From the IMG/VR virus record IMGVR_UViG_3300029504_000072: a stretch of 13,090 bases of DNA. The stretch is one strand, 5' to 3'. Below, piece by piece: positions 1 through 13,090 of the stretch. The notes under the pieces are model-generated. The model made no database searches. It was not told where the DNA came from and saw only the letters and a list, made by a program, of their open reading frames with translations. Position 1 is the stretch's first letter. Every line of letters begins with the position of its first letter. This DNA is from a virus. Its lineage: Duplodnaviria > Heunggongvirae > Uroviricota > Caudoviricetes. The translations under genes and the position numbers were made by a program.

Positions 1-89
1 AGCTGATAGAAACAGAAGCCACTGGAGCACCTCAAAAACACCATCATACACTAAATCAGTAAGTTGGCAGCATCACCCGAACAGCGTTC

Positions 90-1184
90 ATGCGTTCAAC
101 TGGTACGACAGATATTCGGGAAGCCCGAGTCATTCGTGACCGGATAATGTATGAGTTTTTCACCATCCGTGATCGACTGAAACCAAAGCCACAGGGAAAT
201 TGTGTTGATCGCGTATTGAAAGAACTACGTCAGGTTGACCAATACGTCACCCAGAATGTGGGGATCGACTTCGCCACGGCTCGCGTGTGTCCTTCTCTTG
301 TCCAACTACGGGATGAATTCATTGTCCAACACAGTGACAGGCGCAAGCTGTCTACTTTGAGCAAGTACATCAAGGCCGTAGAGGTGTTCACGGCACATTT
401 CAGGTGCAAGGATTTCCGCCTGCACGAGATCAACAGAACGATGGTGACTGACTGGCTCGACAACGCAAAACTTGAACGGGCAACACAGACACTGGCAAAT
501 TATTTGGGCTGCTTGTCCCAACTGGTGGCGCTGGCCCAGAACCGCTACCACGATGCGCCAAAAGAGAACGTCTTCACAGCCCATAAGCTGGATGTGCGAC
601 ATGATCACGAGAGTTACGAGCCATTCAGCGGTGATGAACTGGCGCAGGTTGTGGATTTGCTTGATCAGGAGATGAAGGAAGTCGCGTTGGTGGGAATGTA
701 TACCGGGATGCAACTTAATGAAATCTGTTCGCTACAGATCGACAATATCAAAACGGTAGAGGGGGTTTGGTGTTTCGAAGTGACGGAAGGCAAGACGCGC
801 AATGCGGCCCGCCTGGTTCCCATTCATAGCAAGTTACGGACTCTCGTTAAACATCTTATCCAGAACAATCACAGCGGCTTCCTGTTCTACCATGCCAGTA
901 TAACTGAACGAGCAGACGGCAAGCGCTCTACATGGCACACACAGCGATTCACACGGGCTAAACGGAAGGCGCTAGGAGAGAAGGGGACAGAAAGAAAGGT
1001 ATTTCACAGCCTGCGGGGAATGTTTATCAGCCAGCTTGATCACGGTGGTGTCCCAGAAGACAGGATCGCATTGATCGTAGGTCACGAGAGAGGGAAAACT
1101 GAATCATTCCGCACCTATAGCCAAGGTGCCAGTATGAAGGAGTTAGCAACCTATGTTAATTTGGCAACCTACAAGAAAATTTAG
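90..1184 (+). CDS. Phage-type tyrosine integrase (site-specific recombinase)
   Basis: 364-aa ORF; upstream in-frame stop at 60-62. C-terminal box II HSLRGMF (H-x-x-R), then VGHERG...FRTY (His and terminal Tyr nucleophile). Box I region reads TGMQLNE, with Gln where the catalytic Arg normally sits. No clear Shine-Dalgarno before the ATG. Confidence 0.8.
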   Translation: MRSTGTTDIREARVIRDRIMYEFFTIRDRLKPKPQGNCVDRVLKELRQVDQYVTQNVGIDFATARVCPSLVQLRDEFIVQHSDRRKLSTLSKYIKAVEVFTAHFRCKDFRLHEINRTMVTDWLDNAKLERATQTLANYLGCLSQLVALAQNRYHDAPKENVFTAHKLDVRHDHESYEPFSGDELAQVVDLLDQEMKEVALVGMYTGMQLNEICSLQIDNIKTVEGVWCFEVTEGKTRNAARLVPIHSKLRTLVKHLIQNNHSGFLFYHASITERADGKRSTWHTQRFTRAKRKALGEKGTERKVFHSLRGMFISQLDHGGVPEDRIALIVGHERGKTESFRTYSQGASMKELATYVNLATYKKI

Positions 1185-1253
1185 GTGACAAAAAGCAATA
1201 AATAATTACAATTACGTTCAAAAAACCATCCAGGGAAAGTGAGTTAAAAACAA

Positions 1254-1490
1254 GTGATTAAAAAAATTATCATCATCATATTGTTAATTGTAGCGGGTCT
1301 TTGGGGCTATGGGGCAAGTATTGGTTACTCTCAAAACGATAAGGGAGTATCTTTATTCCAAGTTGCTTACACATATAACTCCCTGAATTTTATAAGTCAG
1401 TATGGATATATGTTTTTCATACGACAAAACCATCAATTAGTCGAAAGAGCTAAAGATTTAAATCGTGATTTTGAGCATAATACAAATTAA
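1254..1490 (+). CDS. Hypothetical small membrane protein (78 aa, GTG start)
   Basis: N-terminal hydrophobic helix KKIIIIILLIVAGLWGY; AT-rich; in tandem with the next ORF. Non-ATG start and weak RBS lower confidence. Confidence 0.35.
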   Translation: MIKKIIIIILLIVAGLWGYGASIGYSQNDKGVSLFQVAYTYNSLNFISQYGYMFFIRQNHQLVERAKDLNRDFEHNTN

Positions 1491-1505
1491 CCACTGGAGC
1501 CTTTA

Positions 1506-1778
1506 ATGAAAAAAATTATTTTCGTATCATTAATTTCATTTTCAGCCATTGCTTCATATGCTGATACACCTTACGCAGATGAGAAAGAAATGTCAGAAGA
1601 TGTATCTCTTTTAGCCCAGTCATCTCTATTATATAAGAGTAATGGTGAGAAAAGAATGTATGATAATACAAAGATGCTATGTATTGGCATCCAAGGAAAG
1701 TACGATCTAACAAATAACAGGACTGAAAACATGATCCGATGGATGGGAAAAGTTCAAAGTATCTGCTCTGATTATTAA
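1506..1778 (+). CDS. Hypothetical small secreted protein (90 aa) with Sec-type signal peptide
   Basis: GGAG at 1496-1499, 6 nt before the ATG. N-terminus MKKIIFVSLISFSAIASYA followed by a polar mature part with two Cys. No family recognised. Confidence 0.55.
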   Translation: MKKIIFVSLISFSAIASYADTPYADEKEMSEDVSLLAQSSLLYKSNGEKRMYDNTKMLCIGIQGKYDLTNNRTENMIRWMGKVQSICSDY

Positions 1779-1779
1779 T

Positions 1780-1809
1780 AAAAAAACCGGGCGGTTTTAC
1801 CCGTCCGGT
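1780..1809 (-). terminator. Intrinsic terminator-like hairpin, canonical for minus-strand transcripts
   Basis: 9-bp stem ACCGGGCGG / CCGTCCGGT (one G-U pair) with loop TTTTAC at 1786-1809. The A-run at 1780-1786 becomes a U-tract after the hairpin on the minus strand; on the plus strand the hairpin alone follows the 1506-1778 stop. Confidence 0.45.
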
Positions 1810-1909
1810 CAGATAGCATCTTTCAGTTTTTGCTGCATTGCGTAATGGTGTATAGCGGGTTCGAGGCCGACGCTGGCGACCTTGCTCAGAAATGTTGAGC
1901 GATGCACAC

Positions 1910-1913
1910 CTAA
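1910..1913. repeat. IS5 target-site duplication, left copy (CTAA)
   Basis: CTAA directly abuts the left IS5 terminal inverted repeat and is repeated at 3109-3112; IS5 makes 4-bp duplications at YTAR-like targets. Confidence 0.9.
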
Positions 1914-3108
<1,195 letters not shown>

Positions 3109-3112
3109 CTAA
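3109..3112. repeat. IS5 target-site duplication, right copy (CTAA)
   Basis: CTAA directly after the right IS5 inverted repeat, matching 1910-1913. Confidence 0.9.
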
Positions 3113-3173
3113 CATTTTAAATGTTGGAATCGCAACGTAGTTATTATCATATAACAGCTTGTTTCCTGATTTA

Positions 3174-3201
3174 GCCAGCCTCCCCAAAGGCTGGTTTTTT
3201 T
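3174..3201 (+). terminator. Rho-independent terminator (plus-strand orientation)
   Basis: Stem CCAGCC (3175-3180) / GGCTGG (3189-3194), 8-nt loop, then a T-run at 3195-3201. Lies between IS5 and the blc stop. Confidence 0.55.
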
Positions 3202-3229
3202 CTAATAAGTATCATTTCGGGTGGGGATT

Positions 3230-3754
3230 TTATTGTTTAACCCATAATAGTTCATTGACATTGAATCCCAACTTTTGAGCGGTACGCACATAGTCTGCTT
3301 TTACATTATCTGGAATAGTTTGGGTCCTTGCCAGAATCCATAGGTATTCTCTGTTCGGACCACTGACAAGAGCATACTTATACTCATCATCCAGCTTGAT
3401 TACATTATAGCCACCATAGAAGGGGCCAAAAAACGAAACTTTCAACGCTGCAGTTTTAGTATCTCCAGTAAAGTATGCTTTACCTTCGCTCTCGCTCCAT
3501 TTGTTTTTCGTTGGATCGTATCCACGGTTAAGTACGCGAATCCCTCCGTCGTTCCGTTTTTCATAAGTAGCGCTGACTTGTTCCAGACCACGTTCGAACC
3601 AGTTCTCGAGGCGAGCTATTTCATACCATTTTCCGAGGTAGCGGTTGGCGTCAAAATTTGTAATCGGCTGCACACCTTTAGGTGGTGTCGGGGCCTTACA
3701 TGCTATAAGAGTGAAAGAGAGTGCAATGCCAGTCAACACAGGCCATAACTTCAT
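3230..3754 (-). CDS. blc: Outer-membrane lipoprotein, bacterial lipocalin Blc family (divergent paralog)
   Basis: 174-aa ORF with lipoprotein signal and lipobox (MKLWPVLTGIALSFTLIAC); lipocalin motifs NFDANRYLGKWYEIARL and KVSFFGPFYGGYNVI...YLWILAR; roughly half of positions match E. coli Blc as I recall it. Confidence 0.85.
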   Translation of the reverse strand: MKLWPVLTGIALSFTLIACKAPTPPKGVQPITNFDANRYLGKWYEIARLENWFERGLEQVSATYEKRNDGGIRVLNRGYDPTKNKWSESEGKAYFTGDTKTAALKVSFFGPFYGGYNVIKLDDEYKYALVSGPNREYLWILARTQTIPDNVKADYVRTAQKLGFNVNELLWVKQ

Positions 3755-3946
3755 AATAAATCCTGTACTTTTGATAGTTGAGAGTAAGTATGAAAGATAG
3801 ATGAGTACGACCGATCACTTAAAGAACTTTCCTACTATATTAGGAATAGTCAATAACAGAAAAATTGTCAGTGATGAAGCCAGAAAGGCAATTTAGTCCG
3901 TGCACTACAAAGTTTATGTGTTAATGAATTAGTCAAGGGGGAGGAA

Positions 3947-4906
3947 ATGATAAAAAAACCTGTGATTGGGATCAGCGGTTGTTTGGGCGGTTCTGCTGTT
4001 CGTTTTGATGGTGGTCACAAAAGAGATGACTTTTTAATGGACAAATTAGTGGAATGGGTAACATTCAGACCAGTATGTCCGGAAATGGCTATAGGGCTGC
4101 CAGTTCCGCGTCCTGCTCTACGACTTGTGCGCTCGAAGCAAGGAAATATACGGATGTGTTTCAGCCACGACCAGAATGAGGATGTGACAGAGAGAATGAC
4201 AGAGTTTAGTCGTTCTTATATGGACAAATTAAAGGATGTATCGGGGTTTGTGGTTTGTGCTAAATCTCCCAGCTGTGGCATGGAGCGCGTGCGTGTCTAT
4301 GATGAAAATGGTAATCGAGGTCGTAAAGATGGAGTGGGACTATTTACGAGCACTTTGATGGAAAAGTTTTCCTGGCTACCGGTTGAAGAGGATGGGCGAT
4401 TACATGATCCAGTGCTTCGTGAGAATTTTATTGAAAGAGTTTTTGCTTTGCATGAGCTCAATCATCTTTACAAGGAGAAATTATCAAGAAGAGAGTTATT
4501 AGCTTTTCATAGTCGTTATAAGCTTCAGTTGTTGGCGCATAGCCAGGCAGGCTATAAAGATATGGGACCATTTGTGGCTGCAATACACGAGTGGGCGGAC
4601 CTTGAATCATACTTTGAGGTGTATCGTGATAATCTGATGGCGATTCTCAGAAAACCAGCATCACGTAAAAATCACACGAATGTGCTGATGCATATACAGG
4701 GGTATTTTAGTAATTACTTAAGTACACGCCAGCGTAAAGAGTTGAGCGAGGTTATACTTAACTATCGCTTTGGCACATTGCCTCTTCTTGCGCCGTTGAC
4801 TCTGCTGAAGCATTATCTGGGTGAGTATCCTAATGATTACTTGCTTACACAGAATTACTTCGATCCCTATCCGGAAGAACTGGCTCTAAGACTGATGGTG
4901 AATTAA
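3947..4906 (+). CDS. DUF523/DUF1722 two-domain protein (TudS-like Fe-S domain fused to YbgA-like domain)
   Basis: 319-aa ORF; strong RBS GGGGGAGGAA before the ATG. N-terminal motifs GISGCLGG...VRFDGGHK, VCPE and SPSCG match the Cys-containing DUF523 signature; the C-terminal half resembles YbgA-type DUF1722. Confidence 0.75.
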   Translation: MIKKPVIGISGCLGGSAVRFDGGHKRDDFLMDKLVEWVTFRPVCPEMAIGLPVPRPALRLVRSKQGNIRMCFSHDQNEDVTERMTEFSRSYMDKLKDVSGFVVCAKSPSCGMERVRVYDENGNRGRKDGVGLFTSTLMEKFSWLPVEEDGRLHDPVLRENFIERVFALHELNHLYKEKLSRRELLAFHSRYKLQLLAHSQAGYKDMGPFVAAIHEWADLESYFEVYRDNLMAILRKPASRKNHTNVLMHIQGYFSNYLSTRQRKELSEVILNYRFGTLPLLAPLTLLKHYLGEYPNDYLLTQNYFDPYPEELALRLMVN

Positions 4907-5312
4907 CTGTATGCGATATCATCTGAAAGTGATGAGTTCCTGTATGCAGGATATTTACAATCGTAAAAACTACGCTATGATGCTCATAGTGTCAGTTTTT
5001 ATAAAAATCCTGTTCACGCTAAAGAAAACATTGAGATGCAATTTAATGTTGGTAAACATACCAGCCCCAAACGATTTTATTCAATCTGTTTTTATATGAA
5101 GATATTTCAAGTGAATATTAAGAGTATATAATATTATTATTGCACGCAGCTATTATAATATAACAGATTAGTTTAATGATTTGTTTTTTGTGAGTTAAAC
5201 ACATGGTTTTATAGTTGTGATGCAATGAGATTTTCCTTATTGTTGAACTGGCGAATATTGATTTTCCACCTATACTTACCTGGTGTAACCCCAATGATAT
5301 CAGGTGGATAAT

Positions 5313-6026
5313 ATGCCATACATATGTTCTATCATTTTGGTGTTGAACTCGTTTGGTGTCCGAATTGGTAAAGAAGATATTTTGTTTAAAAAAGGAAATG
5401 CTGTCCTCATTGAATACAATTTAAAAGATCTTTTTTCGTCAAATACAGATCATCTAATGATCGTAGATGTTGAGGAGAAAACAGTTAATGATTTCTTTAA
5501 AAACTACACACTCTCACCTTTTTCTGTAAGAAGGTTTTATCCGTCATACTTGATAGTAGAATGTGAAGATTTTTCATTGTTAAGGAACTTGGTTGCATGC
5601 TTGAATTGTGATAGCAAAACCGTGGATGTAGTTAGAAATCAAATATCACTTGCATGTCTTGCTGTCTTATCTTCAGAGAAAATAGTGCAAAGTTTTTTGT
5701 TCGGAAGTCTTAATAGCTTAGGTTGTAAAGTTAAGGCTATTATTCACTCGGATATCTCAGCGTCATGGAGACTTTGTGATATATCTTCAAGATTATATAT
5801 GAGCGAGAGTTTGTTAAAAAGAAAATTAAAAGACGAAGGATTATCGTTTAGTAAATTAATTCTTGAAGAACGAATGATGATGGCGCAAAGATTATTGATC
5901 TACAGTAACCATACTGTCGGCAAGGTGGCGGGAATATGCGGGTATGACAATGCATCATATTTTGTAAGTGTTTTTAGAGGATATTTTGGTGTGCCTCCGC
6001 ACCAATATTTATCAAGATTTTCTTAG
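5313..6026 (+). CDS. AraC/XylS-family transcriptional regulator, AppY-like
   Basis: C-terminal AraC HTH (LLKRKLKDEGLSFSKLILEERMMMAQRLL...KVAGICGYDNASYFVSVFRGYFGVPPHQY); N-terminus MPYICSIILVL resembles AppY-type regulators. I place the start at ATG 5313 (RBS AGGTGG at 5302-5307) rather than the track's GTG 5304. AT-rich gene and upstream region. Confidence 0.8.
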   Translation: MPYICSIILVLNSFGVRIGKEDILFKKGNAVLIEYNLKDLFSSNTDHLMIVDVEEKTVNDFFKNYTLSPFSVRRFYPSYLIVECEDFSLLRNLVACLNCDSKTVDVVRNQISLACLAVLSSEKIVQSFLFGSLNSLGCKVKAIIHSDISASWRLCDISSRLYMSESLLKRKLKDEGLSFSKLILEERMMMAQRLLIYSNHTVGKVAGICGYDNASYFVSVFRGYFGVPPHQYLSRFS

Positions 6027-6094
6027 AAGATATGATGTGATGGCATTTTATAAAGTTATTTTTTGAAGTGTAAGATTATACGATATTTTTAGCT

Positions 6095-6126
6095 ACGCCA
6101 GAATAATTGCTGGCGTTTTTCTTTTT
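6095..6126 (+). terminator. Rho-independent terminator downstream of the AraC gene, upstream of the holin (possible tR'-like)
   Basis: Perfect 7-bp stem ACGCCAG / CTGGCGT (6095-6101, 6110-6116), 8-nt loop, then TTTTCTTTTT at 6117-6126. Confidence 0.65.
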
Positions 6127-6216
6127 GAATAGATGTTCGGGCCTTACGCTAATGTAACTTCTTTCCTTCTTCGAACCAAACCGTGTACACCATCCGTTAT
6201 CTGCGGAGGTGAGGCT

Positions 6217-6432
6217 ATGAAATCCATGGATAAGTTAACAACGGGCATCGCCTACAGCACCTCTGCAGGCAGTGCTGGCTACTGGTTTTTACAGTTGCTC
6301 GATAAAGTCACACCCTCACAGTGGGCGGCAATAGGTGTATTGGGTAGTCTGGTATTTGGCATGCTGACGTATCTGACAAACCTTTATTTCAAGATTAAAG
6401 AAGACAGGCGTAAGGCTGCGAGAGGAGAGTAA
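6217..6432 (+). CDS. Class II holin (phage 21 S-type pinholin) with dual-start motif
   Basis: 71-aa product [31 protein letters not shown]...[13 protein letters not shown]; two TM segments and a charged C-terminus; Met1 and Met4 starts (antiholin/holin); RBS GGAGGTGAGG at 6205-6214. The track's 99-aa ORF from 6133 carries an N-terminal extension with no RBS. Confidence 0.85.
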
Positions 6433-6436
6433 GACA

Positions 6437-6655
6437 ATGACTAAAAACTATGAACTGATTGTGAAAGGGACCCGCAATTTTGAGAATAAAGTTACGGTAA
6501 TCTTAACGTTACAGGACAAAGAACGTTTTGCCGGTGAAATTTTTGATCTGAACATCAACCTTGAGCGACTTGAAGGAGCTGGTTTGGATTATTATGAAGT
6601 TACTGCGGTAAAACATGCCAAACAGTTCTTGAGAGATTTGGCTGAAAAAATATAA
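6437..6655 (+). CDS. Hypothetical 72-aa protein between holin and endolysin (positional equivalent of Qin ydfR)
   Basis: RBS AGGAG at 6423-6427; soluble, no TM. Occupies the slot where Qin-like prophages carry a small gene between S and R; homology not verifiable here. Confidence 0.5.
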   Translation: MTKNYELIVKGTRNFENKVTVILTLQDKERFAGEIFDLNINLERLEGAGLDYYEVTAVKHAKQFLRDLAEKI

Positions 6656-6673
6656 AGCGGCATTACTGCCGCT
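6656..6673. terminator. Bidirectional hairpin between convergent small genes
   Basis: Perfect 7-bp stem AGCGGCA / TGCCGCT with 4-nt loop TTAC, starting 1 nt after the 6437-6655 stop. The A-rich plus-strand flank at 6644-6655 gives a U-tract for the minus-strand transcript. Confidence 0.5.
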
Positions 6674-6766
6674 TAGAAATTATTCAATGTCTGGTAGCTT
6701 ATCAAAGATTTCGGATACTCTTATATTTGTCATATAAGCAAATTGAGATTCTGCCAGCTCTTTGGG

Positions 6767-6976
6767 TTATTTTCCCGCTTTTTCTGAGCCAAAAATTGTT
6801 TCTAAAGCCAGCATGTTATATTTGAGAACCTCTTCTCGAGTTTTACCTGATAATTTTGCGGTAACAGCAATATAAAAAGGCAACACTTTATCCAGAAGGT
6901 CGTTGTGTTTTGTCAGTTGTGGTAATACCACATCAAGTTGCTTACTGATTGGTTTGAATGGATCTATACCGTTCAT
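6767..6976 (-). CDS. Hypothetical 69-aa protein, antisense to the lysis operon
   Basis: Minus-strand ORF MNGIDPFKPISKQLDVVLPQ...FGSEKAGK; AGGGA 8 nt upstream of its ATG (spacing long); ends at the shared hairpin. No family recognised. Confidence 0.45.
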   Translation of the reverse strand: MNGIDPFKPISKQLDVVLPQLTKHNDLLDKVLPFYIAVTAKLSGKTREEVLKYNMLALETIFGSEKAGK

Positions 6977-7080
6977 AGTTACATTCCCTTATCAGAGGTA
7001 ATCAGCCATCCCCCCTTTATTACACACGCCAGTATCCACCACTGACGGGCTGAGTGCTTAACATATCTAGAGATTAGAAA

Positions 7081-7099
7081 CTGATAAATCCTGATAAAT
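7081..7099. repeat. Tandem direct repeat CTGATAAAT(C)CTGATAAAT just upstream of the endolysin start
   Basis: CTGATAAAT at 7081-7089 and 7091-7099; a third copy of CTGATAA in inverted orientation (TTATCAG) at 6991-6997. All fall in the divergent intergenic region 6977-7103. Confidence 0.4.
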
Positions 7100-7103
7100 A
7101 TCC

Positions 7104-8131
<1,028 letters not shown>

Positions 8132-8314
8132 ATTAATATTAAATCGGATTATTTTTAGCGCTGAATGTGAAATTTAAATAAAAAGGACTCTTCCATGAGT
8201 CAAAATCCTTGAAATCTTAAGGGTAAGATAAAAGGTCATTAGACAGAATGACACGTTTTATTAATAAATAAAGCTATTGTTTCATTCGTGTGTTTTTCTT
8301 TACAAAAGTAATCC

Positions 8315-8391
8315 TTGCTATGGTTGGTTAATCATGCGTTAATGGTGTTCTGGTTTGTTACAAAATTATCTGAAGCAGTCATTGTTATAAT
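8315..8391 (+). promoter_or_regulatory. Candidate promoter region for the cold-shock gene
   Basis: cspA-like -35 TTGCTA (8315-8320) with 17-bp spacer to -10 GTTAAT (8338-8343), preceded by an AT-rich UP-like tract; alternatively an extended -10 TGTTATAAT at 8383-8391. Either gives a long (about 95-145 nt) 5' UTR. Confidence 0.35.
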
Positions 8392-8494
8392 TTTATTATT
8401 TGTACCTCTTGAGATTTCCTTGTTGGTTTTTCTCTCTGATATTTTTTTTCGGACCATTCTGCCCAAGGGCTAACTTCTTCAAAAGGTAATAATG

Positions 8495-8707
8495 ATGTCT
8501 AACAAAATGACTGGTTTAGTGAAATGGTTTAACCCTGAAAAAGGTTTTGGTTTCATCACGCCGAAAGATGGTAGCAAAGATGTGTTTGTCCATTTCTCAG
8601 CTATTCAGAGCAACGATTTCAAAACGTTAACTGAGAATCAGGAAGTAGAATTTGGTATTGAGAACGGACCTAAAGGCCCCGCGGCTGTTCATGTTGTGGC
8701 ACTTTGA
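8495..8707 (+). CDS. cspI: CspA-family cold-shock protein (CspI-like, 70 aa)
   Basis: Cold-shock domain with RNP1/RNP2 motifs ([16 protein letters not shown]); protein [20 protein letters not shown]...; RBS AAGG at 8483-8486. Start taken at the second ATG (8495), not the track's 8492. Synteny with rz, gnsB and terminase fits the Qin cspI context. Confidence 0.9.
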
Positions 8708-8906
8708 GGTAGAAAATATTACAAACCATATTCACTTTAGATGCCCGTGTTGCCATGGTTCTCAGTATAGAACATCATCTTTTGATGTTTCTGACAGGAA
8801 TCCTTTCGGGGCAAAATGTATCTTTTGTAAATCAATGATGATTACATTTGATAATATTTCACAATACTTAAATGTTAGCCGTCTGTCGTTAGATTTAAGA
8901 AAGTGA
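8691..8906 (+). CDS. Hypothetical Zn-ribbon small protein (Ogr/Delta-like Cys spacing), overlaps the cspI 3' end
   Basis: 71-aa ORF from ATG 8691 (17-nt overlap with cspI); four-Cys motif CPCC-x21-CIFC; followed directly by a strong terminator. No good RBS, so possibly translationally coupled or not a gene. Confidence 0.3.
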
Positions 8907-8913
8907 AAATGAA

Positions 8914-8934
8914 GGCTCCTTCGGGAGCTTTTTT
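8914..8934 (+). terminator. Rho-independent terminator with UUCG tetraloop
   Basis: Stem GGCTCC / GGAGCT (one G-U pair), loop TTCG, then a T-run through 8934. Confidence 0.7.
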
Positions 8935-8978
8935 GCTTAGTGTCTAGTCGATGGATACTCACATATTACGGTAACATT

Positions 8979-9209
8979 ATGAAAAAAATAATAGTTTTTT
9001 TTAACTCTGAACCAGCAATGGTAGTGCCAGTGATGACCGGAGTTAACACCATCATGCGTGAATATCCAAATGGCGAAACAACACACCTCACTGTAATGGC
9101 TGCAGGGTTTCCATCTCTGACCGGAGATCATAAAGTCATTTATGTAGCAGCGGATCGACATGTAACTTCAGAAGAAATTCTGGAAGCAGCAATGAGACTC
9201 TTGAATTGA
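8979..9209 (+). CDS. Hypothetical 76-aa protein between cspI and gnsB (YnfN/YmcE-position gene)
   Basis: ATG at 8979 (the track's ORF starts at GTG 8940); product MKKIIVFFNSEPAMVVPVMTG...; assigned by position only. Confidence 0.45.
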   Translation: MKKIIVFFNSEPAMVVPVMTGVNTIMREYPNGETTHLTVMAAGFPSLTGDHKVIYVAADRHVTSEEILEAAMRLLN

Positions 9210-9303
9210 TTTGATTCTAATGCATTGATAATAAATGATAATCATCTTTATCTGTTTGTGTGAAATTTAGACCGTCGTATGTTGATTATTGCGATGTTTC
9301 ATC

Positions 9304-9332
9304 TTATCTTTTATACGCTTGCTCCATATAAT
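9304..9332 (+). promoter_or_regulatory. Candidate sigma70 promoter upstream of gnsB-like gene
   Basis: Consensus -10 TATAAT at 9327-9332, about 50 nt upstream of the start codon; -35 is weak (TTATCT). Confidence 0.3.
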
Positions 9333-9381
9333 TGACACTACTGTGTACCAGGAAAGTCATAACAGACTAAAAGAGGAAATG

Positions 9382-9555
9382 ATGAACATTGAAGAGTTAA
9401 AAACAAAAACAGAAGCAGATATTTCTGAATATATAACAAAAAAAATCATTGAGCTTAAGAAAAAGACCGGGAAAGAAGTTACCAGTATCCAGTTTACTGC
9501 ACGGGAAAAAATGACTGGTCTTGAAAGCTATGATATCAAGATTGATTTAATCTAG
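9382..9555 (+). CDS. gnsB: GnsA/GnsB-family small protein (57 aa)
   Basis: MNIEELKTKTEADISEYITKKIIELKKKTGKEVTSIQFTAREKMTGLESYDIKIDLI; RBS AAGAGGA at 9371-9377. True start is the internal ATG (9382, or 9379), not the track's 9289. Confidence 0.8.
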   Translation: MNIEELKTKTEADISEYITKKIIELKKKTGKEVTSIQFTAREKMTGLESYDIKIDLI

Positions 9556-9615
9556 TCTGTTTAGTATTAGCATCAATTTCTCATCAGATGCTATTCAACA
9601 ATACAAATTACCCAT

Positions 9616-9640
9616 AAACCTCGTTTTTACGGGGTTTTGT
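9616..9640 (+). terminator. Putative intrinsic terminator after the gnsB-like gene
   Basis: Stem ACCTCG / CGGGGT (one G-U pair), loop TTTTTA, then TTTTGTTATATTT. Confidence 0.4.
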
Positions 9641-9848
9641 TATATTTAAACATTACCGAATAGGTATAAATCTCGATTGTCGATGGTATTGGTTGTGTGA
9701 CAATACCTAGTCTTTCCGGTATGCCTGAAGAGAATACAAACGACAGATTATGTAAGGGAAACGCGCTGAATCTTTAACTCTTTCATGCTGAGTGATTTGA
9801 CGTTATATTTTTAGCCGTAAGTGAAGAGCAAACGCATGGAGCGACATA

Positions 9849-10055
9849 ATGCATAAAGATCAATACACTGATGCCCCCTCCCAGGAGCAGGTTCGTGTAA
9901 AAACTATGCTTAATAGCACCATTTCGATGGGTTACCCGGATGTTGTAATTGCATGTATAGAACATCAAGTGTCTCTGGAAGCATTCAGGGCAATTGAGGC
10001 CGCGTTAGTAAAGCACGATAAGAATACGAAGGATTATTCCCTGGTGGTTGACTGA
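9849..10055 (+). CDS. Hypothetical 68-aa protein
   Basis: GGAG at 9838-9841, 7 nt before the ATG; product [40 protein letters not shown]...; no family recognised. Confidence 0.45.
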
Positions 10056-10399
10056 TCACCATAACTGCTAACCATTCTGACCATTTCACAAGTGACAGAG
10101 TCAATATCGTATTCTGTCACTGTCAGGCTAATACAGCAATGCAATTCAACTACAGCAATGCCTCGTATTTAGGTGAATTTACAATATCGTCCAGTTCGGA
10201 TGCCGGCTGCATTTCTGAAGATAAGGCATTTCGGTTCTCGTATTTTCCCCTCATGCTCGTCAGTCCTGCGCGTAGTAAGAGACAGGACACTCACACTAAT
10301 TTGTGTGGGCATGCTGTGATGTCCTTCTGAATTATCCCCATGCCATTATGTAAAGCTCTGTTACAGATGCTCGTCACGGTTGTCAGGCTGTCGGGTCCT

Positions 10400-10560
10400 C
10401 CCAGTGGGGGGCCCTGCCACGGGGCGGGAGCGTCGCGGAAAAAGGCTAGTTTTTGAAATTTTATTCGTCATCACCACTACTGTAATTGATTGGTATTACA
10501 GTGGTTTTATTTTTATGGTGTCGATTCTGATTGTTTTTTGTTCATCGCTAACACCGTTTG
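10400..10560 (+). other. Lambda-like cohesive-end site (cos), predicted cosN overhang GGGCGGGAGCGT at 10422-10433
   Basis: GC-rich CACGGGGCGGGAGCGTCGCGG in an AT-rich context matches lambda ACGGGGCGGCGACCTCGCGGG at 16 of 21 positions; downstream TTGAAATTTTATTCGTCAT echoes lambda cosB; 8-bp inverted repeat ACTGTAAT/ATTACAGT at 10479-10502; sits directly upstream of the terminase small-subunit gene as in lambda. Confidence 0.6.
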
Positions 10561-10607
10561 CCTAAAGTTGTTCGCAAGATGCATGTTTAAAACATTCTGG
10601 AGCGGGT

Positions 10608-11102
10608 ATGGATCGAGAGTTAAAAAATCTGACGCTGAATATCAGTCAACTGGCGGCATTGTCAGGTGTACATCGCCAGACTGCTGCGGCAAGGCTGCAA
10701 AATCTACCCGTTGCAGGGGGGCATGAAAGCAACCTCAAGCTTTATCGGGTGGTTGATATTGTATCGGCATTTCTGGCATTACCACCGCCGGTTGCAGAAG
10801 GCGAAATGGACGCGCATGAGCGCAAAGCCTGGTATCAGTCTGAACGTGAGCGTCTTAAGTTCGAACAGGAAACGGCACAACTCATTCCGGCCAGTGATGT
10901 CAGACGGGAGTTTGCCATCTGGGCAAAAGCGGTCGTGCAGGTGCTGGAGACATTACCGGATATTCTTGAACGTGACTGCGGTCTGCAGCCTGCCGCTGTG
11001 AGCCGTGTTCAGTCCATTATTGATGATCTGCGCGATCAGATAGCCCTGCGGGTGACTGAAGCAGGTGCGGATGATGAGGAGGAATTACAGCAGGAGGAGT
11101 AA
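10608..11102 (+). CDS. Terminase small subunit (lambda Nu1 / NohA-like)
   Basis: 164-aa ORF with N-terminal HTH (LTLNISQLAALSGVHRQTAAARL) and acidic C-terminus; RBS GGAGCGGG; immediately after cos and before the large subunit; stop overlaps the next start (TAATG). Confidence 0.85.
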   Translation: MDRELKNLTLNISQLAALSGVHRQTAAARLQNLPVAGGHESNLKLYRVVDIVSAFLALPPPVAEGEMDAHERKAWYQSERERLKFEQETAQLIPASDVRREFAIWAKAVVQVLETLPDILERDCGLQPAAVSRVQSIIDDLRDQIALRVTEAGADDEEELQQEE

Positions 11103-13090
11103 TGCTGAATCAGGAAACCGCAAAGGCAGCACGAACCGATTCAGGTTATATCCTTCGCGCACCGAGACGAATGCGGGTTGCTGATGCCGTTGCTCAGTAT
11201 ATGCGGGTGCCCATGGGGGCAGGGAACTCAGTCCCGTGGGATCCGCTGGTGGCACCGTATGTTATTGAGCCTATGAACTGCCTGGCCTCGCGTGAATACG
11301 ACGCAGTGATATTTGTTGGCCCGGCACGAACCGGCAAGACTATCGGCCTGATTGACGGCTGGGTGATTTACAACGTGATTTGCGATCCTGCGGATATGCT
11401 GATCATTCAGATGACAGAGGAAAAAGCCCGCGAACACTCCAAAAAACGACTCGCCAGAACGTTTCGCGTCAGCCCGGAAGTGGTCAGTCGCCTGAGTCCG
11501 AACAAAAATGACAACAACGTTTATGACAGAACATTCCTTGCTGGCAACTACCTGAAAATCGGCTGGCCGTCAGTCAATATCATGTCCTCATCAGATTATA
11601 AATGCGTCGCGCTGACGGATTATGACCGTTTTCCGGAAGATATTGATGGCGAGGGGGATGCCTTCTCTCTTGCCTCAAAACGTACCACCACATTTATGTC
11701 CAGCGGTATGACGCTGGTGGAGAGTTCCCCCGGCAGGGATGTGAAGGATGTGAAATGGCGACGGACTTCACCGCATGAGGCTCCACCAACCACGGGGATC
11801 CTGTCGCTCTATAACCGTGGTGATCGCCGTCGCTGGTACTGGCCATGTCCACACTGTGGTGAGTATTTTCAGCCCTGCGGCGATGTGGTTGCTGGTTTCC
11901 GTGATATTGCCGATCCCGTGCTGGCAAGTGAGGCGGCTTATATTCAGTGTCCTTTCTGTTCAGGACGGATTATGCCTGAACAAAAACGTGAGCTGAACGG
12001 ACGTGGGGTCTGGTTGCGGGATGGTGAATCCATCAATGCGGATGGCAGTCGTTATGGTGATCCCAGGCGTTCACGTATTGCGTCATTCTGGATGGAGGGT
12101 CCGGCAGCTGCTTACCAGACACTCTCGCAACTCGTTTACAAACTGCTTACTGCAGAACAGGAATACGAGACAACCGGAAGTGAAGAAACACTCAAGACGG
12201 TTATCAATACCGACTGGGGATTACCTTATCTTCCCCGCGCCAGCATGGAGCAACGAAAAAGTGAACTGCTTGAGCAGCGGGCAGAGCCAGTTCCTTCCCG
12301 CAGTGTGCCAGATGGCGTTAATTTTCTTGTGGCGACAGTGGATGTGCAGGCGGGACGTCATCGCCGTTTTGTGGTTCAGGTAACGGGCTATGGCAGCCGT
12401 GGCGAACGCTGGATTATTGATCGTTACAACATCACGCAGTCATTGCGCGGTGACAGCGACGGGGAGAGCCAGCGAATTGATCCGGCCAGCTATCCGGAAG
12501 ACTGGGATGTCCTGCTGACGGATGTTTTTCATAAAAGCTGGCCGCTGGCCTCCGATCCTTCTCAACAAATGCGACTGATGGCAATGGCGGTGGACTCCGG
12601 CGGTGAAGACGGGGTCACTGATAATGCCTATAAATTCTGGCGTCGTTGCCGTCGTGATGGCCTTGGTAAACGTATTTACCTGTTTAAGGGCGACAGCATC
12701 CGGCGCGCAAAACTGATCACCCGTACATTCCCTGATAACACCGGACGAACGGGCCGACGGGCGCAGGCCGCAGGTGATGTGCCGCTCTGGCTTCTTCAGA
12801 CGGATGCACTGAAAGACCGGGTGAATAACGCGTTATGGCGTGACTCGCCAGGTCCCGGCTATGTGCATTTCCCTGACTGGCTGGGGAGCTGGTTTTACGA
12901 CGAACTGACGTATGAAGAGCGGAGCAGTGACGGGAAATGGAGTAAGCCGGGTCGCGGTGCCAACGAAGCTTTTGACCTGATGGTGTATGCCGAGGCTCTG
13001 GTCATTCTGCATGGATACGAAAAGATCCGCTGGCCGGATGCACCGGAGTGGGCGAGCCGGGAAACCTGGCTGGAGTGTGTCCCGGACAGC
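11102..13090 (+). CDS. Terminase large subunit (lambda gpA family), 3'-partial: runs off the window end
   Basis: Hand translation of frame 2 from ATG 11102 gives 663 codons with no stop to position 13090. Walker A VGPARTGKT; zinc-finger-like WPCPHCGEYF...CPFCSG comparable to lambda gpA ACPHCGEE; acidic nuclease-like motifs downstream. Not in the ORF track because it has no in-window stop. Confidence 0.9.
   Translation, partial: MLNQETAKAARTDSGYILRAPRRMRVADAVAQYMRVPMGAGNSVPWDPLVAPYVIEPMNCLASREYDAVIFVGPARTGKTIGLIDGWVIYNVICDPADMLIIQMTEEKAREHSKKRLARTFRVSPEVVSRLSPNKNDNNVYDRTFLAGNYLKIGWPSVNIMSSSDYKCVALTDYDRFPEDIDGEGDAFSLASKRTTTFMSSGMTLVESSPGRDVKDVKWRRTSPHEAPPTTGILSLYNRGDRRRWYWPCPHCGEYFQPCGDVVAGFRDIADPVLASEAAYIQCPFCSGRIMPEQKRELNGRGVWLRDGESINADGSRYGDPRRSRIASFWMEGPAAAYQTLSQLVYKLLTAEQEYETTGSEETLKTVINTDWGLPYLPRASMEQRKSELLEQRAEPVPSRSVPDGVNFLVATVDVQAGRHRRFVVQVTGYGSRGERWIIDRYNITQSLRGDSDGESQRIDPASYPEDWDVLLTDVFHKSWPLASDPSQQMRLMAMAVDSGGEDGVTDNAYKFWRRCRRDGLGKRIYLFKGDSIRRAKLITRTFPDNTGRTGRRAQAAGDVPLWLLQTDALKDRVNNALWRDSPGPGYVHFPDWLGSWFYDELTYEERSSDGKWSKPGRGANEAFDLMVYAEALVILHGYEKIRWPDAPEWASRETWLECVPDS

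Follow-up and report, generated by a model that had tools for sequence, protein, structure and literature searches.

The stretch of DNA analysed here, 13,090 nt of the Caudoviricetes virus record IMGVR_UViG_3300029504_000072 (referred to as the window; all coordinates are given on it), carries the late genes of a lambdoid prophage, separated from a truncated tyrosine integrase by a single copy of IS5. Genes were mapped from the open reading frame (ORF) listing together with Pfam, PHROG, NCBIfam and Rfam scans, and the whole stretch was compared by megablast with 5,426 complete E. coli genomes, none of which covers 80% or more of the window and many of which match it from 3109 onward; relative loci and contigs used for closer comparison are labeled with L-numbers (L001, L002, L006 etc.). 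A preliminary description of the same DNA had listed holin, endolysin, Rz/Rz1, morons, cos and terminases in this order, plus IS5 and a three-gene AT-rich block, all of which are present, and had placed the integrase 5 kb from the lysis genes, which agrees with the 5.0 kb measured from the integrase end to the holin start. This feature list is correct as far as it goes, but it missed an IS1 end at 1-77, a terminator resembling tR' at 3173-3203 and a truncated ydfR whose end is replaced by a 496-bp segment. No tRNA genes were detected in the window.

The left end is formed by the terminal 77 bp of IS1 (1-77, minus strand), the remainder of which lies beyond the window. It is 100% identical to the IS1 ends found beside annotated IS1A transposase genes in L001 and L003, and ggtgatgctgccaacttactgat, its terminal sequence, can be read directly off the minus strand. 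Then follows the integrase remnant (90-1184, plus strand, 364 amino acids (aa)), recognised by PF00589 (2.4e-16) and a SAM_5 domain, which lacks the first 37 codons of an intact 401-aa gene: these were removed by the IS1 insertion, and the ATG in the window corresponds to Met38. The intact form is found in L007, L009 and L012 with an N-terminal DUF6538 match, part of which has gone with the first 37 aa, the window protein thus being shorter than a full-length, functional tyrosine integrase. The HxxR and Tyr motifs are present as judged by eye. Box I reads YTGMQLNE (residues about 200-210), and BLASTP pairs it with TGQRVGD of lambda Int (Arg212) and with YTGVRPGE of the integrase of rspB-site prophages, Gln occupying the position expected for the first catalytic Arg, in the widespread 401-aa form likewise. 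Integrases that carry a SAM_5-type domain and lack the first catalytic Arg are known from Bacteroides elements. Downstream lie two small plus-strand ORFs with hydrophobic N-termini (1254-1778; 78 aa at 1254-1490 and 90 aa at 1506-1778), which accompany the integrase in every compared locus and gave no Pfam, PHROG or PADLOC match; PADLOC, run on the small ORFs and the cargo proteins, found no match to a defence system. The flank closes with the 3' stump of the next gene of the integrase's island (1809-1913, minus strand; 69 aa), cut by IS5, the uninterrupted gene at L004 13809-14018 being equivalent to window 1809-2018.

This flank as a whole (1-1913) is 99.9-100% identical to a module present in 17 complete genomes, the IS1 cut lying always 13 nt before the ATG. 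NT1N31-type genomes carry the module in an island adjoining thrW/proA, followed by IS5 and hsdR, and in NCTC9064 it has ygaQ and the gab operon as neighbours. Natively the integrase resides in a small island (L007 8474-17684; also L009, L012 and L016), together with the two small, secreted-looking ORFs, resolvases and genes for a major-head-like protein (PF03864, phrog_29) and for one resembling a replication initiator (phrog_8102); this island may represent a satellite-like element with a capsid gene. Because the window integrase shares just 30% identity over 50 aa with the 426-aa integrase of prophages at rspB (the Qin site) and has a distinct native island, sequence comparison indicates that it is not the prophage's, and that it comes from a separate small island present at other chromosomal sites. 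It had been suggested earlier that the integrase belongs to a separate element inserted beside the late genes: the separate element stands, the insertion is not supported, since the fragment is truncated by IS1, has no att and is joined to the late genes through IS5. The search for att-like direct repeats, proposed in the same context, returned only the IS5 terminal repeats. Being truncated and having no att sites here, the integrase fragment should be unable to excise the late region.

The sequence to the right of IS5 (3109-13090) is 98.6-99.8% identical to the rspB-site prophages L001, L002 and L035, which establishes orthology with the Qin lineage. In EC-107, EC20-72C-1 and NT1N31 the homologous region belongs to a lambdoid prophage adjoining rspB, with the gene order int, xis, exo, dicB, repressor/cro-like, O-like, hokD, rem, ydfU, a 125-aa Q, blc (on the minus strand), ybgA, AraC-type gene, holin, ydfR, rrrQ, rzpQ and cspI and, further on, terminase, portal and head genes; the int-to-terminase order next to rspB is seen in L001, L002 and L006. 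The 125-aa Q of these relatives contains PF06530, matches the Q21 structures (6P18, 6JNX) with E = 5e-9 and displays 84% nt identity to DLP12 quuD.

In the window, Q was searched for by tblastn in all six frames with three Q families (QuuD-like, QuuQ/YdfT and lambda Q), and nothing better than E = 1.6 was obtained. For the early region the tblastn queries comprised the early genes of the closest relative besides cI, cro, cII, O, P, N, xis, exo and bet of lambda; no match in the window was significant (the best, at chance level, were cro with E = 0.052 and dicB with E = 0.060), the sole exception being a family-level match to the integrase. The statement that the window contains no Q or early region is hence corroborated, and of the components of an intact prophage it lacks repressor/cro, replication genes, its own int/xis and att. 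Neither does it hold a Q gene with pR' and the Q-binding element (QBE) upstream of the late genes; only the tR'-like terminator remains.

In Q cassettes the Q gene is followed by PR', which has a sigma-dependent pause element, then by the terminator and the late genes (10.1101/651190), the QBE sitting between -35 and -10 (PMC6606751). In the relatives Q (QuuD/Q21 family) ends 34 bp to the left of the IS5 target, window position 3109 being the base 35 nt past the Q stop, and a candidate pR', TTGCTG-17 bp-TAACAT, begins 12 nt past that stop. From comparison with the relatives and hairpin prediction, the residual control region between Q and the late genes spans 3109-3203 (plus strand), with a putative -10, TAACAT, at 3110-3115 and the tR'-like terminator at 3173-3203. 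The latter is a hairpin followed by U7 (-14.9 kcal/mol, z = -3.8), with the U-run on the plus strand only, 64 nt to the right of IS5. The region 3109-3203 is conserved in the phages IdasGreatGrand (PP925829) and Lambda_2E9 (LR595860), and the -10 variant of Lambda_2E9, TAATGT, keeps T1, A2 and T6. The candidate -10 shares its first bases with the IS5 target CTAA, and these alignments suggest that the candidate late promoter has probably been split by IS5, with its -10 end still in the window. A consensus promoter scan of the plus strand flagged nothing between 3100 and 3200, and locating pR' by conservation with the region downstream of DLP12 quuD was abandoned, as the two are not alignable. 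Directly to the right of the IS5 target, in the presumed late-transcript leader, there is a perfect 7+1+7 palindrome, AACATTTTAAATGTT (3113-3127), which is less symmetric in Lambda_2E9.

The IS5-family element itself (1914-3108, plus strand, 1195 bp) contains a transposase at 1982-2962 (DDE_Tnp_1, DUF772) between terminal inverted repeats and is bordered on both sides by CTAA (1910-1913 and 3109-3112). These flanks were discarded as target-site evidence since both parental insertions duplicated CTAA, each empty site showing it once (the left one in L004). Both halves of the arrangement are known separately. Q-IS5-blc, with identical site and orientation, occurs in 4 complete genomes (EC20-72C-1, S171-1, J6 and S1-CAM-01-A) and, again at this site and in this orientation, in about 20 draft contigs, namely L033, L036 and L032 with 18 others similar to it; YJ6 and TST3, examined as further cases, were rejected because their IS5 copies lie elsewhere in the prophage. 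IS1-integrase-two ORFs-IS5, with identical site, occurs in at least 11 complete genomes, and there hsdR follows IS5. Both flanks around one IS5 were found by megablast of the junction in 0 of the 5,426 complete genomes, and exact matches to three proteins (the 90-aa ORF, the IS5 transposase and a 69-aa ORF) did not lead to the window arrangement either.

Within the element, the left part (1914-2409) shows 1 difference from the ISKpn26-like copy beside the integrase in L003, and the right part (2438-3108, ~670 bp) shows 0 differences from the copy downstream of Q in L002, the similarity switching at 2410-2437. A crossover would give this pattern, yet the 1195-bp isoform is 100% identical in unrelated contigs, and the mosaic, taken at first as proof of a crossover, was therefore downgraded to being consistent with one. 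It should be noted that in NT1N31-type genomes the uninterrupted island (L004 13914 onward) is not continued to the right of the integrase-side IS5, on the side of hsdR (L003 23110 onward), and this IS5 copy has hence already taken part in an earlier rearrangement.

Since both junctions pre-exist separately and here flank one insertion sequence, the arrangement is most simply explained by recombination between two IS5 copies, and we consider it probable that the window joins remnants of two unrelated mobile elements, brought together through one IS5 copy by IS5 x IS5 recombination, in which the late operon lost Q. The part to the right of IS5 (3109 to the end) would be the Q-distal portion of a Qin-lineage (rspB-site) lambdoid prophage, and the part to the left (1-1913) a fragment of a small integrative island, composed of the IS1-truncated integrase, two small genes and a gene stump. 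In the parental prophage IS5 would have landed 34 bp past the 125-aa Q gene, as in some strains. Homologous recombination between this Q-side copy and the IS5-family copy on the integrase side would then have produced an inversion, if the copies were inverted on the chromosome, or otherwise a deletion, the foreign fragment thereby taking the place of Q, of the early region and of the int/xis native to the prophage. The early half has either been deleted or been moved elsewhere, e.g. by inversion.

As to function, IS5 would now part the -35 of the candidate pR' and the Q-binding region from the -10, the initially transcribed region and the tR'-like terminator. Whichever pR' assignment holds, the late operon is without Q in cis, and the lysis cassette still faces the terminators at 3173-3203 and 6095-6125; the proposed uncoupling of this cassette from Q antitermination is thus supported. 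If the promoter has been placed correctly, Q supplied in trans probably could not load on this late operon either. The lysis and packaging ORFs, intact as read, should be silent, and morons with apparent signals of their own (blc, ybgA, araC, cspI and gnsB) can still be expressible.

Several observations weigh against this account. The rearrangement is deduced from one junction only, its reciprocal not having been found; the mosaic IS5 is no unique footprint, given that the identical 1195-bp isoform exists in unrelated plasmid and chromosomal contigs; and the CTAA on both sides is uninformative. The match to pR' is weak (-35 3/6, -10 4/6), its assignment comes from sequence and went unflagged in the consensus scan, and the unalignable region downstream of DLP12 quuD gives it no independent support.

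A more specific form of the same idea, which we advance only tentatively, is that the junction marks one end of a large chromosomal inversion by IS5 x IS5 recombination, which would have split the Qin-site prophage into an early half, with Q, and a late half, with its lysis and packaging genes intact. If the gene order is like that of NT1N31, about 1.35 Mb separates the two loci and the IS5 copies would lie in inverted orientation, so that recombination between them would give an inversion and exactly the junction of the window. If this is true, the cell keeps a complete, permanently disarmed lysis cassette behind a beheaded pR'.

Among the explanations that dispense with recombination between IS5 copies in the cell, the one that survives best, unlikely as it is, is an assembly chimera: the assembler would have switched paths inside the repeated IS5, the real genome carrying integrase-IS5-X and Q-IS5-blc. 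A path switch between diverged IS5 copies gives the same left/right similarity pattern as that described above, and the junction is found in no other record, both parental junctions being present in other genomes; on the other side, the sequence bears no mark of an artefact, the exact IS5 isoform is a real element elsewhere, and IS-mediated rearrangement is common in this prophage family, which is littered with IS1, IS2, IS3, IS5 and ISEsa1; moreover, the integrase-side IS5 of the NT1N31 type is already flanked by non-contiguous DNA. We rate somewhat lower still the possibility that the junction was made by IS5 transposition, either as an intramolecular adjacent deletion or inversion or as an independent new insertion. 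IS5 prefers CTAA-type targets, repeated hits on one tetranucleotide being possible, and the isoform of the window circulates, but both junctions pre-exist in the same orientation in other strains, whereas transposition would create at least one new junction. The remaining proposal, that the integrase is native to the prophage, whose early region and Q were taken by an internal deletion, has in its favour the common strand and 5 kb spacing of integrase and late genes and the proof from K-12 Qin and DLP12 that such deletions occur, but it can practically be dismissed, as the relatives carry next to rspB a different, 426-aa integrase (the 30% over 50 aa given above), the window integrase, IS1 cut and two small genes included, is found at unrelated loci (thrW/proA island, ygaQ/gab) among non-prophage neighbours, and its intact form belongs to a distinct island.

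IS5 x IS5 recombination as favoured above leaves an object of the same kind as K-12 Qin and DLP12, i.e. a product of ordinary prophage decay and of already known biology, the particular junction being strain-specific. With K-12 Qin the block rrrQ-rzpQ/rzoQ-cspI-ynfQ-ynfN-gnsB is orthologous (window 7094-9690, 91.9% nt identity over 2.6 kb), the relatives of the window occupy the same rspB site and share dicB, relBE, hokD, rem and ydfU, and both Qin and the window are IS-damaged and defective. They differ in that Qin has a 250-aa YdfT/QuuQ-type Q and cspB/cspF between Q and holin, where the lineage of the window has a 125-aa QuuD-type Q and blc-ybgA-araC, and in that Qin kept Q and lost the head genes, while the window kept the terminase genes and lost Q. 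DLP12 has the same Q family as the relatives, the same phage-21-type holin, a minus-strand outer-membrane cargo gene between Q and holin and an IS5 copy in that interval; its IS5, however, lies in nmpC, Q is retained, and the endolysin and terminase modules differ from those of the window. The relatives also reproduce the layout of the Q21 cassette of phage 21, with Q gene, short intergenic promoter region, intrinsic terminator and late genes, but they show no TGAGCA repeats like those of the Q21 QBE, and over 83 aa their Q is only about 30% identical to Q21; in the window the cassette is broken, Q being gone and the terminator side alone being left.

The importance of the locus beyond annotation is small. 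It illustrates that an integrase near phage late genes need not be theirs, that cargo between Q and holin is normal in this phage lineage, and that an IS5 copy landing in the short interval from Q to its terminator is able to disarm a late operon. It also calls for caution with prophage-prediction pipelines, since their probable output here, a single 'incomplete prophage with integrase', would stand for what are actually two unrelated remnants.

The cargo immediately following the control region consists of three AT-rich genes (GC 0.30-0.45). The first encodes a Blc-like outer-membrane lipocalin (3230-3754, minus strand; PF08212, 7.5e-43; NCBIfam Blc, 312 bits, above cut-off), the second a YbgA-type protein combining a 2-thiouracil desulfurase-like DUF523 with DUF1722 (3947-4906, plus strand; PF04463 and PF08349), and the third an AraC-type regulator of the YdeO/GadX-like kind (5313-6026, plus strand; HTH_18, HTH_AraC, phrog_1450), for which the best NCBIfam match is YdeO, below cut-off, with GadX also close and also below. 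A terminator at 6095-6125 follows the AraC-type gene. Prophages of enterohaemorrhagic E. coli encode AraC-like proteins, namely PatE, PsrA and PsrB, that regulate acid resistance and type III secretion (PMC10877973). The cargo is found in 1,154 of the 5,426 complete genomes, nearly full length in 888. It lies between Q and holin in intact prophages as well as in the isolated, plaque-forming phages IdasGreatGrand and Lambda_2E9, and hence is no scar: blc-ybgA-araC is a native moron cassette of the lineage, rather than deletion filler or a sign of decay. The premise of the preliminary description that Q and pR'/tR' lie directly upstream of S accordingly does not apply to these phages and prophages. 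Both phages have the order Q-blc-ybgA-araC-holin, with 93% and 87% nt identity, respectively, to window 3109-6432, which makes the cargo compatible with a working late operon; they differ from the window in having Q and an uninterrupted Q-blc intergenic region, and also in their endolysin and terminase modules.

The lysis genes follow in lambdoid order, with holin, endolysin and Rz/Rz1. The holin (6217-6432, plus strand) is of class II, phage 21 S type, with an MKSM dual start (PF04971, 6e-34) and 89% nt identity to DLP12 essD. Next comes a truncated ydfR (DUF1327; 6437-6655, plus strand), with 72 aa instead of 103 and matching positions 1-72 of the 93 of PF07041. At 6598 the window diverges from L001, and a 496-bp segment (6598-7093), which L002 and L032-L036 have but L001 and L006 lack, stands in place of 137 bp at the 3' end of ydfR. 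This segment, a moron wedged between holin and endolysin, has a strong hairpin (6655-6674; z = -4.2) and contains a 69-aa minus-strand ORF (6767-6976), which matches phrog_25324 but nothing in Pfam or PADLOC. The endolysin is an rrrQ-like lysozyme (7104-7637, plus strand; PF00959), whose hydrophobic, Gly/Ala-rich N-terminus suggests a signal-anchor-release domain. It is followed by the Rz spanin (DUF2514; 7634-8131, plus strand; PF10721), with an embedded Rz1 lipoprotein (7827-8081, plus strand) in the +1 frame bearing the lipobox LTSC, a layout as in K-12 rzpQ/rzoQ.

Further morons on the plus strand make up the block 8337-9555, which also gave a phrog_3425 match: cspI with a cspA-type thermoregulator leader (8337-8753, coding sequence 8495-8707; Rfam RF01766, 112 bits; CSD), ymcF/ynfQ (8718-8906; YmcF-like Pfam), ynfN (8979-9209) and gnsB (9382-9555; GnsAB Pfam). 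Beyond it lies a small ybcW-like ORF (9849-10055, plus strand; phrog_657, 4.6e-48), with 81% nt identity to the ybcW region of DLP12.

Concerning packaging, the terminase genes lie downstream, preceded by a cos-like site, as in lambdoid phages. The cos of the preliminary description can be retained as a candidate cleavage site at 10421/10422, ccctgccacg/GGGCGGGAGCGTCGCGG (10410-10445, plus strand), identified by homology to the linear record of phage Tritos, which ends at the base matching 10421 and begins at the base matching 10422; this placement presupposes that the record ends are the physical ends. The lambda cosN is absent from the window when up to 2 mismatches are allowed; the right side of the candidate starts with GGGCGGGAGCGT, the first six bases of which are those of lambda cosN. 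A hairpin followed by a T-run (~10474-10515) is situated between the cos-like site and the small terminase gene. The small terminase (10608-11102, plus strand), previously named Nu1, turned out to be of the DUF1441 type (PF07278, 2.7e-41; phrog_141, 7e-74) and not lambda Nu1. The large terminase belongs to the gpA family (GpA_ATPase, GpA_nuclease); its first 663 codons occupy 11102-13090 (plus strand), and the frame is open at the window end, with no stop. The right part of the window is in turn a mosaic, with 99.8% identity to L035/L002-type prophages over 3109-10455; from 10456 on the small terminase region is unmatched in these and the large terminase (11201 onward) is 85% identical, the switch falling 34 bp to the right of the cos-like site, while the whole right stretch matches L001 at 98.6%.

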